A stretch of 14,963 bases of DNA. It comes from a virus. Position numbers and translations under genes: made by a program. This document shows, piece by piece, positions 8,237 to 12,538 of this stretch. The number at the start of each line of letters is the position of its first letter. Positions within the stretch are counted from its first letter, which is position 1. The stretch lies in the UHGV virus genome UHGV-0220714, one strand, 5' to 3'. The notes beneath the pieces were generated by a model. It was given only the letters and a program-made list of their open reading frames with translations, was not told where the DNA came from and ran no database searches.

Positions 8237-8944
8237 TCACGAATTTTTCAGCCACTCCCTTGCCTCGATGTCATCCAGATGACGAGATTGCTTCAGAATA
8301 CCAGCCACATACTCCACCTTTGCTACTTGATGATAAGGCAACGTTATAGGCCTGTGGTCCTGGTTAATGCTTGTAAATTGGTATTCTCCATCTCTGTCAT
8401 AGCCAAGAACCTTAATCATGTTGTGTCCTTCAACGGTTCTGACAAACACCTCATCACCCGGGAATACTTTGGTGTTAGGCTCAATGAGTACATATTCTCC
8501 TGATTTTATTCTGGGCCACATGCTGTCTCCTTTCACACGAAGACCAAAGGCATCTGGATCATCGCTATAAATCTTGAGCCACCCATCGCGCTCTTCGGTC
8601 ATCTCGATGGCACCATCAACACCAAGAATTGCCTCACCAACCACGCGCACTAACCCTTTTTTTAATTTGCCAACAAATGAAAGAGTATCTTCATCATTCG
8701 CTCCATTTAACGAAGTGCCGTGCTGAAGCCAAACAACATCAACGTTTAGAAATTTCGCAAGCGCATTCATTTTTTCCTGACGCGGTAAAGACTCAGCATT
8801 AAACCATTTGCTAACGCCTTTGGACGAAAGAGAAAGGGCACGGGCTATGGCCATCCCCCTACCATGTTCATCAAGACCAGCTTCTTTACAGGCTTGCGCT
8901 AGCCGCTGGGCGAATTCTTTGCGCACTTTTTCATTCTGAACCAT
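8237..8944 (-). CDS. cI: CI-type prophage repressor (N-terminal HTH, C-terminal S24/LexA-like peptidase), 235 aa
   Basis: ORF track; GDSMWP serine motif and downstream K in C-terminal domain; divergent from cro across an operator region; no SD before ATG (possibly leaderless). Confidence 0.85.
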   Translation of the reverse strand: MVQNEKVRKEFAQRLAQACKEAGLDEHGRGMAIARALSLSSKGVSKWFNAESLPRQEKMNALAKFLNVDVVWLQHGTSLNGANDEDTLSFVGKLKKGLVRVVGEAILGVDGAIEMTEERDGWLKIYSDDPDAFGLRVKGDSMWPRIKSGEYVLIEPNTKVFPGDEVFVRTVEGHNMIKVLGYDRDGEYQFTSINQDHRPITLPYHQVAKVEYVAGILKQSRHLDDIEAREWLKNS

Positions 8945-8963
8945 GAGTACGATACTAAAGCAC

Positions 8964-9007
8964 TTGCAAAAACTTTCAGTTCAATCATAATGCGTACTGA
9001 AAGTACG
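8964..9007 (+). promoter_or_regulatory. PR promoter (-35 TTGCAA 8964-8969, -10 CATAAT 8986-8991) with overlapping dyad operator (OR)
   Basis: 16-bp spacer; inverted repeat ACTTTCAGT (8972-8980) / ACTGAAAGT (8996-9004) and palindrome CGTACTGAAAGTACG (8993-9007) overlap the promoter, upstream of cro. Confidence 0.5.
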
Positions 9008-9022
9008 AAAAAGGATATTCCT

Positions 9023-9250
9023 ATGCAAAATCTTGATGAGCCGATTAAAGGTGTCGGCATCCCTGAAGTTGCGAAGGCTTGTGGAGTTAGCGAAAGGGCT
9101 GTCTATAAGTGGCTTAAAAACGGCTTCCTCCCTAAGACTGAGTTTTTTGGGAAAACGAAATATGCATCAAAAATCGAAGAGATTTCTGGTGGCAAATATC
9201 AAGCAAGCGAAATGCTTGAAATAAGCAAAAAGAACCTTCTGGCTGCATAA
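9023..9250 (+). CDS. cro: Cro-like HTH repressor, 75 aa (start MQNLDEPIKG)
   Basis: ORF 8990..9250 trimmed to ATG 9023 with AAGGA SD; HTH segment IPEVAKACGVSERAVYKWLKNG; divergent from cI. Confidence 0.7.
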   Translation: MQNLDEPIKGVGIPEVAKACGVSERAVYKWLKNGFLPKTEFFGKTKYASKIEEISGGKYQASEMLEISKKNLLAA

Positions 9251-9257
9251 GTAACAT

Positions 9258-9292
9258 CGCTCTTTATCAATCTGCACCGCCGACAACGCGGT
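9258..9292 (+). promoter_or_regulatory. nutR site: boxA CGCTCTTTA (9258-9266) plus boxB-like hairpin ACCGC-cgacaac-GCGGT (9276-9292)
   Basis: boxA consensus-like; hairpin loop contains GACAA as in P22 boxB; located between cro and cII. Confidence 0.6.
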
Positions 9293-9304
9293 AACTAATT
9301 AAGC

Positions 9305-9322
9305 ACTCATCGAAAGATGAGT
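9305..9322 (+). terminator. Candidate tR1-like hairpin (ACTCATC-GAAA-GATGAGT) followed by U-rich tract
   Basis: 7-bp stem with GNRA loop, then attagtgattattta; between nutR and cII. Confidence 0.35.
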
Positions 9323-9356
9323 ATTAGTGATTATTTACCTATGGAAATAGTAAGAA

Positions 9357-9656
9357 ATGGAACAAACAAGTTACAGCAAACTATCACAGCGCGACGTTGA
9401 TCGCGCAGAAACAGATTTACTCATCAACCTGTCAACGCTTACCCAGCGCGGTCTGGCAAAGATGATTGGCTGTCATGAATCGAAAATAAGCAGAACGGAC
9501 TGGAGATTTATTGCTTCGGTTCTGTGTGCTTTCGGAATGGCATCAGACATCAGTCCGATTAGCAGGGCTTTTAAGTATGCGCTTGATGGACTCACCAATA
9601 AAAAACGCCCGGTGTGCAAGACCGAGCGTTCTGATCAAATACAAATGGAATTTTAA
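9357..9656 (+). CDS. cII: Transcriptional activator CII, 99 aa
   Basis: C-terminus LTNKKRPVCKTERSDQIQMEF closely matches lambda CII ILTNKKRPAATERSEQIQMEF (memory); HTH LAKMIGCHESKISR. Confidence 0.85.
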   Translation: MEQTSYSKLSQRDVDRAETDLLINLSTLTQRGLAKMIGCHESKISRTDWRFIASVLCAFGMASDISPISRAFKYALDGLTNKKRPVCKTERSDQIQMEF

Positions 9657-9667
9657 CAACATCCAAC
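9597..9667 (-). ncRNA. Candidate OOP-like antisense RNA overlapping the 3' end of cII
   Basis: Minus-strand -10 TATAAT (plus 9674-9679) in cII-rep intergenic region; minus-strand terminator CGCUCGG-loop-CCGGGCG-UUUUUUAUU at 9597-9628 (G-U wobble works only on minus strand). Confidence 0.4.
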
Positions 9668-9678
9668 GAGGTAATTAT

Positions 9679-9822
9679 ATGCGAAAAACGCAGGAAAATA
9701 AACGCGTTAATCACCGAAAAGATGTGCTACGTGACCAGTTTTATCAGGGGGTTAATCCAGCAATAGCTGTGCCACTGAGAGAAATACTTAACAGGTACAA
9801 AACTTCGGAGAAGTCAAAATGA
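9679..9822 (+). CDS. Possible small basic protein, 47 aa (MRKTQENKRVNHRKDVLRDQFYQGVNPAIAVPLREILNRYKTSEKSK)
   Basis: In-frame tail of ORF 9511..9822; ATG 9679 with GAGGT 7 nt upstream; stop overlaps next gene ATG (ATGA). Confidence 0.3.
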   Translation: MRKTQENKRVNHRKDVLRDQFYQGVNPAIAVPLREILNRYKTSEKSK

Positions 9823-10550
9823 GCATGAATCTTATGGCTAAGGCCATGAATATAAAGGTTGGCAACCCACTGAGAAAACTGGTTCTGATTAAACTTGCCG
9901 ATAACGCCAATGATAATGGCGAATGCTGGCCTTCATATCAACATGTCGCTGACCAGTGTGAGGTGAGCAGATCGACAGTAAAAAGTCACATTAGGGCACT
10001 GGAAGAGATGGGGCTTTTGAAAAGGGAATTCAGAAGAAAAGGAGAGCTTAACCAGTCAAACGTTTTTTATCTGACGCTGGATAATGCACAACAAATCCAA
10101 CCAGAATCAGGTGGGGCAGGAGCTGCCCCCAGAACCTATCACTCTTTTGAACCAGTCAATGAACCTAAAAACATTATGTTCGAACATGTCCGAACAGAGT
10201 GTGAAAAAACTCCTGACCGTCACGAAGAAACCGACAAGGCATTCGAGGAAATATTCTGGTGTGCAGGCATGCGGAAAGCCGGGAAGAAAAACGCAGCTTC
10301 AGCATTCAGAACACAGTTCAGGGAATGGCGTAAAACTACAAGGGGTACGGCAAGCGAGTTTGCCACGATGCTGGCAGAAGACATCGCATGCAGGAATGGT
10401 AAGCAGTTCGGATTCGACAGGTTGTTACCATCGAGCTACCTGAACGGTCAGCGCTGGAACGACGAAAAGCCAGAAACCATTCAACCACAATCCAAACCAT
10501 CATCCGCAATCACCGTATCGAAAACTGGCTACGTGTTTTTCGACAGGTGA
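9819..10550 (+). CDS. Replication initiation protein with N-terminal winged-HTH, 243 aa
   Basis: ORF track; N-terminal LADNANDNGECWPSYQHVADQCEVSRSTVKSHIRALEEMGLLKR resembles wHTH of phage replication initiators; sits directly upstream of primase-helicase. Confidence 0.65.
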   Translation: MSMNLMAKAMNIKVGNPLRKLVLIKLADNANDNGECWPSYQHVADQCEVSRSTVKSHIRALEEMGLLKREFRRKGELNQSNVFYLTLDNAQQIQPESGGAGAAPRTYHSFEPVNEPKNIMFEHVRTECEKTPDRHEETDKAFEEIFWCAGMRKAGKKNAASAFRTQFREWRKTTRGTASEFATMLAEDIACRNGKQFGFDRLLPSSYLNGQRWNDEKPETIQPQSKPSSAITVSKTGYVFFDR

Positions 10551-10657: not shown

Positions 10658-12538
10658 ATGACGCCAAGTGAACTTAGCGACCTGCTTTGGGCGCAGGTTG
10701 ACAGGGTGGCTCCGCACCTGTTGCCAAACGGCAAGAAAGAGGGGCATGAGTGGGTTGCCGGTAACGTCAACGGTGACAAGGGAAACAGCCTTAAGGTCAA
10801 CCTTAGCGGCAAGAAAAAATGGGCTGATTTCGCTGAGGGAGACGGCGGTGACATGCTTGATTTGTGGATGGCATGTCGTGGAATTAACCTGCATCAGGCT
10901 ATGCAGGAAGCGAAAGCATTTCTCGGTATCAAGGATGACGATCACCATTTCGATGCCAAACGTGAGAAAAAATTCTCCAGACCTGATCGCAAGAAAATCG
11001 CCCGCTACGTTACCAGAACAGAATCCCATCTTGAGTACCTGCAATCGCGTGGCATATCGCCAGAAATCGTAAAGCGCTACGAGGTTGTCAGCGGCAAGGT
11101 GTGGAATGGAGAGCGGGAACTGGATGCTCTGGTGATTCCGTACAAACGCGATGGTGAGTTGTTGCAGGTCAAGCGAATCAGCACTGAGCGCCCGGACGGG
11201 AAGAAAGTCATTATGGCAGAAGGTGATTGCGAACCTTGTCTGTTCGGATGGCAGGCTCTGGACGCTGGCGTGAGGGCGGTTGTACTTTGCGAAGGCGAAA
11301 TTGATTGTATGAGCTATGCGCAATACGGCATCTCGGCGTTATCCGTGCCGTTTGGTGGAGGGAAAGGCGCTAAGCAACAGTGGATTGAGTTTGAGTATCA
11401 CAACCTCGACAGGTTTGAGGAAATATTCATCTCGATGGACGTTGATGATGTTGGTCGTGAAGCCGCAAGGGAAATCGCAAGCCGACTCGGTGAACATCGT
11501 TGCCGTCTTGTTACTCTGCCGTGCAAAGACATCAACGAATGCCTGATGAACGGTGTTACCGAGGATGAAATCTGGCAGTACATCGGCACGGCATCCTACT
11601 TCGATCCTGAAGAACTCTACAGTGCGCGAGAGTTTTACCAGGACACTATCAACGCTTTCTACGGCAAGCAGCAGTATCTGTTTAATCCACCGTGGGAATC
11701 TCTGGCAGATAAATTCCAGTTCCGTGAGGCAGAGTTGACGCTGGTCAATGGTGTGAACGGTCACGGAAAAACGGAGGTTGTCGGGCATATGGCACTTGAG
11801 GCAATGCGTCAGGGTGTGAAGACGTGCATCGCGTCACTTGAGCTGAAGCCTGGTATTCTCCTTAAGCGCCTTACCCGTCAGGCGACGTGCTGCAAGATGC
11901 CGCCAGTGCTGGAAATTGACTCTGCATTTAAATTTTATGACGAAAGACTTTGGGTGTTTGGCCTGACCGGAACGGCGAAAGCCGACAGGCTGATCGAAAT
12001 ATTCGACTACGCTCGCCGCCGATACGGGATCCAGTTATTCATCATCGACAGCCTGATGAAATGTGGCATAGGCGACGATGACTATAACGGGCAGAAGGCG
12101 TTTGTTGACTCGATTTGCGATTTCAAAAACAAAACAAACTCCCACGTCATTCTCGTTACTCACTCGCGAAAAGGAGACAGCGAAGAAAAACCAACCGGGA
12201 AAATGGACGTAAAAGGCTCTGGAGCGATAACAGACCTGACAGACAACCTTTTCATCATCTGGCGTAATAAGGCTCGCGAGAGAGCGTTACAGAGAGTTCA
12301 GAGTGGTGAAAAGATGTCAGAGAAGGACGAACAGCTACTGGCATCTCCGGCATCTGTTTTGATGCTTGAAAAACAACGTAACGGCGAAGGTTGGGAAGGT
12401 GGTGTCCCGTTGTTCCTTGACGAGCAATCGCACCAGTTCCTGCAACTTGAATCAGGATCGCCATATAGCTACATCGCCAATATGCCGAAATCGGAATATG
12501 ACGAGGCGTGGCGACAAGAAAACGTGACGGAGTATTAA
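10658..12538 (+). CDS. Bifunctional DNA primase (Toprim) / DnaB-like replicative helicase, 626 aa
   Basis: ORF track; Toprim-like acidic motifs (LCEGEIDCMS, ISMDVDDVGREAA); Walker A NGVNGHGKTE and Walker B LFIIDSL in C-terminal half; GAGGGA SD. Confidence 0.85.
   Translation: MTPSELSDLLWAQVDRVAPHLLPNGKKEGHEWVAGNVNGDKGNSLKVNLSGKKKWADFAEGDGGDMLDLWMACRGINLHQAMQEAKAFLGIKDDDHHFDAKREKKFSRPDRKKIARYVTRTESHLEYLQSRGISPEIVKRYEVVSGKVWNGERELDALVIPYKRDGELLQVKRISTERPDGKKVIMAEGDCEPCLFGWQALDAGVRAVVLCEGEIDCMSYAQYGISALSVPFGGGKGAKQQWIEFEYHNLDRFEEIFISMDVDDVGREAAREIASRLGEHRCRLVTLPCKDINECLMNGVTEDEIWQYIGTASYFDPEELYSAREFYQDTINAFYGKQQYLFNPPWESLADKFQFREAELTLVNGVNGHGKTEVVGHMALEAMRQGVKTCIASLELKPGILLKRLTRQATCCKMPPVLEIDSAFKFYDERLWVFGLTGTAKADRLIEIFDYARRRYGIQLFIIDSLMKCGIGDDDYNGQKAFVDSICDFKNKTNSHVILVTHSRKGDSEEKPTGKMDVKGSGAITDLTDNLFIIWRNKARERALQRVQSGEKMSEKDEQLLASPASVLMLEKQRNGEGWEGGVPLFLDEQSHQFLQLESGSPYSYIANMPKSEYDEAWRQENVTEY

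Follow-up and report, generated by a model that had tools for sequence, protein, structure and literature searches.

A probable oop antisense RNA gene opposite the 3' end of cII in a Stx-phage-like virus sequence

Background

The OOP RNA of bacteriophage lambda is the textbook antisense regulator of the lysis-lysogeny decision. It is 77 nt long with a pppG start (PMC3349717), it overlaps the cII gene by 52 bases (PMC5869508), and it pairs with the cII-O transcript, which leads to RNase III-dependent cleavage, less CII and a decision in favour of lysis (PMC5869508, PMC2327240, PMC12197685). This RNase III-mediated lowering of cII has been established only for lambda (PMC5869508, PMC2327240), where the role of OOP is only modest under some conditions (PMC2327240). 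The -10 element of its promoter, pO, has been defined experimentally, a -10 mutation being located 2 bp from the first O codon, and pO has been found to interfere with convergent transcription from pR and to affect replication (PMC3985674). A LexA site has been cited within the oop-pO region of lambda (PMC5869508).

Related loci have been described in other lambdoid phages. A 63-nt oop RNA of P22, with its own divergent terminator hairpin, was found by small-RNA-seq (PMC13397905), and an OOP transcript of the BTP1 prophage was detected by RNA-seq (PMC7067206). OOP-like sequences have been reported in the cII-O regions of Stx phages in reviews of the Wegrzyn / Nejman-Falenczyk group (PMC5488031, PMC12197685); in these phages cII control has an indirect influence on prophage induction and toxin release (PMC5488031). 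According to Hayes et al., about 21 lambdoid phages share a 33-bp block, ACTGGATCaATCcACAGGAGTaATTATGaCAAA, located at pO and the oop 5' end, and a small 'orf' is known from lambdoid phages in the interval from oop to the replication gene (PMC3349717).

Here we analyse a stretch of 14,963 nucleotides from the virus genome UHGV-0220714 (henceforth the window), in which a sequence-only reading had proposed an OOP-like antisense RNA at the 3' end of cII, and we compare it with a segment of lambda (NC_001416, 37900-39300; L001) and with a set of divergent cII loci. The interval is very probably the oop gene of a lambdoid phage or prophage, comprising pO, a predicted RNA of about 65-69 nt and tO. 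As such it is an already known, ordinary lambdoid feature, with nothing in it that goes against current understanding, and the value of recognizing it lies mainly in annotation, as it prevents misreading of the small ORF and of the cII tail. The sole points that are mildly new are the loss of a LexA-like box in the variant found here, and the wide occurrence of the cII-tail terminator among Enterobacterales, with covariation.

Results and Discussion

Genetic context and closest records

Gene content and profile matches identify the window as a lambdoid, Stx-phage-like immunity and replication region. A cI-like repressor with matches to Peptidase_S24 and HTH_3 is encoded on the minus strand (8237-8944), and a cro-like HTH gene extends to 9250. 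Then come cII on the plus strand (9357-9656, 99 aa; Pfam Phage_CII, E = 1.9e-34; phrog_191, CII-like activator, E = 1.2e-38), a plus-strand ORF of 47 aa (9679-9822; phrog_1913, E = 4.7e-22) located between oop and an O-like HTH_36 replication initiator (9819-10550), and a primase/helicase (10658-12538).

The best-matching records are Stx2a-converting phages, including Phi24B (vB_EcoP_24B), Min27 and phiXuzhou21-Stx2a. The segment 9332-9900, which has the entire oop locus inside, matches Phi24B, Min27 and further Stx2a phages with 97.7% identity, and the cII of the window is 100% identical to cII in several of the Stx2a phages. A 116-bp query covering the oop core found matches in 887 of 5426 complete E. 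coli genomes, with 115 records at 99% identity or more; several E. coli genomes, including O157:H7 strains, carry it with 100% identity, and the Xuzhou21 copy is located at NC_017906 1260506-1260621. No OOP annotation is present at this locus in the matching phage record or in the listed E. coli records, which annotate the CII protein only; the product of the 47-aa ORF is labelled a hypothetical protein in the phiXuzhou21-Stx2a record. A search of the whole window against Rfam at the gathering threshold found no family, and a permissive search of 9500-9760 returned only noise (MicC, STnc310 and others, E = 2-5, far under the gathering scores).

An intrinsic terminator in the last codons of cII

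The inverted repeat that had been read in the last codons of cII is indeed located at 9606-9628, with the plus-strand arms CGCCCGG (9606-9612) and CCGAGCG (9622-9628) and with AATAAAAAA (9597-9605) in front of them. On the minus strand, folding, homology and covariation identify it as an intrinsic terminator, a homolog of lambda tO (stem-loop 9632..9602; 9632..9597 with the U-run). The minus-strand fold is AGAACGCUCGGU-CUUGCAC-ACCGGGCGUUUU, then UUAUU: a stem of 12 pairs, 6 of which are G-C and one of which is a U-G wobble within the core (arms 9628-9622 and 9612-9606), with a U-A closing pair and a 7-nt loop, and with the tail UUUUUUAUU (9605..9597) after the stem-loop. The hairpin and its U-run (9597-9632) thus lie opposite the end of a genuine cII gene, whose tail NKKRPVCKTERSDQIQMEF is encoded opposite the predicted antisense RNA.

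The sequence-only reading had further claimed that the 7-bp core contains a G-U wobble on the minus strand in place of a C-A mismatch on the plus strand, and that the terminator pairs well only on the former. Both claims are borne out here: an 81-nt segment folds with -20.6 kcal/mol as the minus strand versus -14.1 kcal/mol as the plus strand, which has a C-A mismatch inside the stem where the minus strand has its wobble, and lacks a U-run behind the hairpin. The reading as a plus-strand terminator or attenuator was rejected for the missing U-run and the C-A mismatches on that strand. Within 8800-10200 the minus-strand hairpin is the top terminator-like site of a terminator scan, and it dominates both the MFE and the centroid folds of the minus-strand RNA, folding of this transcript being a check that had been named beforehand. 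When the 20 cII codons underlying it were recoded synonymously 300 times, 290 of the versions gave a less stable hairpin and 10 were as stable. Computationally, the stem, the U-run, homology, covariation and the strand preference all point to a rho-independent terminator of the tO type, at which leftward transcription would terminate itself.

The same scan gave a weak terminator-like pattern on the plus strand inside cII (9497-9522; 9 pairs, 4 of them G-C, tail TGTGTGCTTT), which is probably due to chance.

Selection on the hairpin among divergent cII homologs

Homologous loci were taken from divergent phages (Hafnia phage yong1, a P22-like Salmonella phage, HK75 and phiSTEC1589) and from a scan of a genome collection, with an alignment of four cII sequences as the query, which contributed 13 prophage cII loci from contigs representing one genome per species; the genera include Shimwellia, Atlantibacter, Pseudescherichia, Mixta, Pantoea, Winslowiella and Pectobacterium. 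A scan of viral contigs gave only relatives at 95-100% identity, which served for mapping of mosaic junctions and not for covariation.

A minus-strand, G+C-rich hairpin followed by a U-run is present in the last 20 codons of cII in all 17 homologs, which come from several enterobacterial genera and have amino acid identities of 45-100%. The stems of these hairpins and the encoded tail peptides vary widely (e.g. KKSPTAVTADDS, EKPQPSGNSIRA and KKSASGKGADS), and in each of the 17 loci just 1 to 24 of 300 synonymous recodings reach the stability of the native hairpin. The minus-strand fold is more stable than that of the plus strand in 16 of the 17. When the 11 hairpins of comparable size were aligned, standard pairs were found in 98.3% of the cells, with both-sided (compensatory) changes at 5 pairs, e.g. 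from C-G to U-A and from G-C to C-G; the covariation score was reached in none of 500 shuffles, and slid controls were paired to 34-61%. In the same alignment, 18 cells are G-U on the minus strand and would be A-C mismatches on the plus strand, as opposed to 1 cell the other way round, so the strand asymmetry noted in the window extends to the family.

Constraint on the protein only was rejected as an explanation, as the hairpin survives where the tail peptide changes. From the retention of the hairpin, the recodings and the covariation it follows that protein constraint alone is insufficient and that the strand on which the cII-tail hairpin folds is the minus strand; the structure is selected beyond the protein. 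The cII-tail terminator is a conserved, covarying RNA element in prophages of many Enterobacterales genera, and one that is without an Rfam family.

Comparison with lambda oop

In lambda, we take the OOP RNA to occupy L001 776..700, starting with GUUGAU 8 nt after CATAAT, as counted from the 77-nt sequence. With these coordinates the hairpin of the window coincides with the tO terminator: both arms (CGCUCGG and CCGGGCG, the U-G wobble included) and the UUUUUUAUU tail of lambda tO are identical to those of the window, and the whole of CTCACCAATAAAAAACGCCCGG...CCGAGCGTTCTGA is identical except for the loop, which is 3 nt longer in the window. In both phages the locus lies opposite the cII 3' end, in antisense orientation, and converges with pR, and the -10 element overlaps the ATG of the next gene, which is O in lambda and the 47-aa ORF in the window. 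The likeness to lambda OOP, proposed earlier, thus holds for the identity of the cII gene, for the arms and U-run of the terminator and for the placement of the -10 element over the next start codon, and by position and sequence we regard the locus, with high confidence, as a homolog of lambda oop.

The two loci differ in their promoter-proximal halves. The -10 hexamer is TATAAT in the window and CATAAT in lambda, and the best -35 candidate of the window is TTTATT (3 of 6 consensus positions) as compared to TTGAGT (4 of 6) in lambda, both with a spacing of 17 bp. The 5' motif GUUG(G)AU is common to both, GUUGAU of lambda aligning with GUUGGAU of the window, but the 5' part of the window RNA is about 12 nt shorter (about 69 nt in total versus 77 nt), and the 5' stem-loop of lambda (AUCCAG/CUGGAU) is not conserved. 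A LexA-like box, CTG-N10-CAG, spans the start of lambda oop, where it presumably is the LexA site, and is absent from 9600-9720 of the window.

As regards the coding sequence opposite the RNA, the CII proteins of lambda and the window are only 34% identical overall, whereas their last approximately 18 codons are nearly identical in DNA (window 9540-9660 versus L001 640-754). The cII tail plus oop behaves as a separate, highly conserved module, either under dual constraint or as a recombination patch.

The candidate promoter and its overlap with the small ORF

The minus-strand TATAAT that had been placed about 45 nt upstream of the hairpin is found at 9679..9674, some 42-46 nt from it. This pO-like -10 element is a perfect hexamer in the homologous position, and it begins with the base opposite the A of the ATG at 9679. 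Of 18 divergent cII loci, 15 have [C/T]ATAAT over the start of the following gene, which predicts RNAs of 64-77 nt, and the hexamer does not vary among six divergent loci that were aligned. The best candidate for the -35 element, TTTATT at 9697..9702 on the minus strand, is weak and lies in the variable part of the mosaic. A generic promoter scan did not call pO, the -35 element being below its threshold, and an extended -10 element is absent at pO of the window. Since the -10 element falls on the AT-rich spacer and the ATG that belong to a ribosome-binding site, GAGGTAATTATATG, translation signals could account for part of its conservation. As a leftward promoter in its own right the site accordingly presents a homologous and conserved -10 element, set against a -35 element with half of the consensus positions, the missing call and the overlap with RBS and ATG.

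The 47-aa ORF at 9679..9822, named in the sequence-only reading, exists as an in-frame ATG within the mechanically derived ORF 9511-9822. Its stop codon overlaps the next ATG (ATGA, 9819-9822), by which it is translationally coupled to the O-like gene, and it belongs to a recurrent family, phrog_1913. The earlier contention that the antisense promoter and this ORF are competing signals misframes the arrangement: the overlap of the -10 element with the ORF start weakens neither, and lambda has the same layout at pO and O. Since a small ORF recurs at this position, the overlap is a normal design and poses no contradiction. The PHROGs label of phrog_1913 is 'tail protein', which is implausible for a 47-aa ORF of the early region coupled to an O-like gene and is probably a mis-annotation in the library.

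Near-identical loci comprising cII and the spacer split right after ATGCGAAA (9679-9686), which marks a sharp mosaic junction with at least two different downstream genes beyond it; many matches to Stx2a phages stop at 9686. With the junction at this point, the -10 element of pO travels with cII and the -35 element with the exchangeable replication module. At some loci the -10 hexamer is missing from its expected place: Hafnia phage yong1 (about 1010-1025 of its locus) and Atlantibacter (about 920-930) have no [C/T]ATAAT there and carry CATG[G/A]TATTCT over the start of the next gene, similar to an extended -10 element (TGnTATTCT), and phiSTEC1589 has no recognizable -10 element.

The predicted antisense RNA

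From homology and from the spacing between the -10 element and the terminator, an OOP-like antisense RNA of about 69 nt is predicted on the minus strand at 9667..9599. Its 5' end is likely to be at about G9667, GUUGGAU beginning 7 nt after TATAAT, with G9664 or G9663 as alternatives, and its 3' end would be at about 9599, in the U-run. The length of 65-69 nt so predicted agrees with the 65-75 nt anticipated by the sequence-only reading and is that of a short transcript of roughly 60-80 nt. Such an RNA would be perfectly complementary to 58 nt of cII (9599-9656), i.e. to the last 55 nt of coding sequence and the stop codon, and would cover in addition about 11 nt of the spacer between cII and the small ORF. 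The 69-mer folds with -20.3 kcal/mol (z = -2.6) into a small 5' stem-loop and the terminator. We do not claim a conserved lambda-like 5' stem-loop, as the stem has only 4 bp and is weak here, and recombinants mix both types of arms.

A variant with a short 5' segment

The terminator of the window is shared with phage 21 (lambda imm21), where the whole hairpin, including the loop UCUUGCACA, is identical and cII is 92% identical. Upstream of it the two differ: lambda imm21 has the lambda-type 5' oop, pO and O, while the window has the short segment CAACATCCAACGAGGTAATTATATG and then the small ORF. P22 oop and BTP1 OOP share with the window the site, antisense to c1 as the cII equivalent, the size class and a 3' end made of a hairpin and a U-run (PMC13397905, PMC7067206), and P22-like phages also have a small ORF between oop and the replication gene (PMC3349717); the stem of the P22 terminator, however, is unrelated (GCCUCAAAACUG...CAGUCUUGAGGC), and P22 has a canonical 5' end, GAUUGAUCCAG, which the window is without.

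The 33-bp block, a common marker of such loci that is not part of their definition, is not found in the window, which has CAACATCCAACGAGGTAATTATATGCGAAA with about 12 nt missing and keeps only the recognizable ATCCA..AGG..TAATTAT. The LexA-like CTG-N10-CAG, not found in 9600-9720, is likewise a feature of lambda and not a defining one. With the spacer shorter and diverged, the lambda-type 5' stem-loop has been lost. A short spacer of this type, CAACGAGGTAATTATG, recurs with CATAAT in a distant Pantoea prophage. By its sequence, the oop locus of the window combines a terminator of the phage 21 type with a short, non-canonical 5'/promoter segment, like Stx2a phages of the Phi24B/Min27 type.

The loss of the 33-bp block with its LexA-like operator, together with the gain of a consensus -10 element, makes SOS-independent, constitutive expression of OOP conceivable. 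That the short-5' variant represents an SOS-independent, constitutively expressed subclass of OOP is a tentative suggestion that we consider rather doubtful. If true, such expression would alter how Stx phages of the Phi24B/Min27 type weigh lysis against lysogeny; in any case, a variant promoter without the LexA-like box is a small difference that can be tested.

Probable function and alternative explanations

We infer that the variant promoter fires and think it quite likely, judging from the sequence, that a functional antisense RNA, about 65-70 nt long, is made from the locus. A sigma-70 promoter at pO (TATAAT, 9679..9674) would drive leftward transcription against the pR operon, and some 65-69 nt would be transcribed before the polymerase is stopped at tO (9632..9602 and the U-run) within the last codons of cII. 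By analogy with lambda, OOP would pair with the pR transcript to form a double-stranded substrate for RNase III, and the ensuing cleavage would lower the expression of cII and tilt the decision to lytic growth. In addition, pO transcription running leftward may hamper pR transcription going rightward into the replication genes.

An alternative is that the locus is a relic, in which the terminator was inherited with the cII-tail module while the promoter and the 5' segment were replaced, so that little or no RNA is made and the hairpin is functionless or merely stops stray leftward transcription. The missing 33-bp block, the weak -35 element in a mosaic segment, the divergence of near-identical sequences right after ATGCGAAA and the phiSTEC1589 homolog without a recognizable -10 element are all in line with it. 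We nevertheless consider a relic unlikely, given that the -10 element of the window is a perfect TATAAT and hence better than CATAAT of lambda, that the CAACGAGGTAATTATG spacer with CATAAT is also present in a distant Pantoea prophage, and that the variant is widespread and conserved among the complete E. coli genomes (887 of 5426).

It could also be argued that the palindrome has been kept with no antisense role, either as an element of the plus-strand mRNA concerned with stability or pausing, or because it encodes the C-terminal, FtsH-targeting tail of CII. Proteolysis of lambda CII is indeed signalled by its C-terminal 16 residues (PMC5869508), lambda and the window resemble each other far more closely in the tail than in the body of the protein, and the hairpin can form on the plus strand too. 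This explanation is very improbable in view of the distant homologs, which change the peptide and yet keep a hairpin more stable than its synonymous recodings, of the wobble pairs, which occur almost only on the minus strand, and of the U-run, which follows the hairpin only there; besides, a plus-strand terminator at this place would cut off the replication genes. Finally, the inverted repeat and the TATAAT might both have arisen by chance. TATAAT is not enriched in the window (4 occurrences on both strands versus 5.9 expected), and 1.6 terminator-like patterns are expected at random in a region of 1.4 kb. Against this, the hairpin has a homolog in a terminator that was defined by experiment and its position is kept in all 17 homologs with covariation, and any one 20-nt interval of a strand should contain about 0.004 TATAAT by chance, as estimated from the count in the window. 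Chance has a negligible probability and is effectively refuted by homology, recoding and covariation, and an oop gene of the lambda type is the reading that we retain.

Neighbouring regulatory signals

Two further signals were observed in the vicinity of oop. The spacer between cro and cII (9258-9325, plus strand) contains a boxA-like sequence, CGCTCTTTA (9258-9266), and two hairpins, the second of which is ACUCAUC-GAAA-GAUGAGU (about 9305-9322), and the fold of 9251-9356 has z = -2.25; this spacer looks like a nutR site (boxA and boxB) for N-type antitermination. In the first codons of cII, on the minus strand, TTGCTGTAACTTGT (9366-9379) corresponds to TTGC-N6-TTGC with one mismatch, a pattern that is not enriched in the window; the CII-binding repeats at pRE of lambda occupy the same place.
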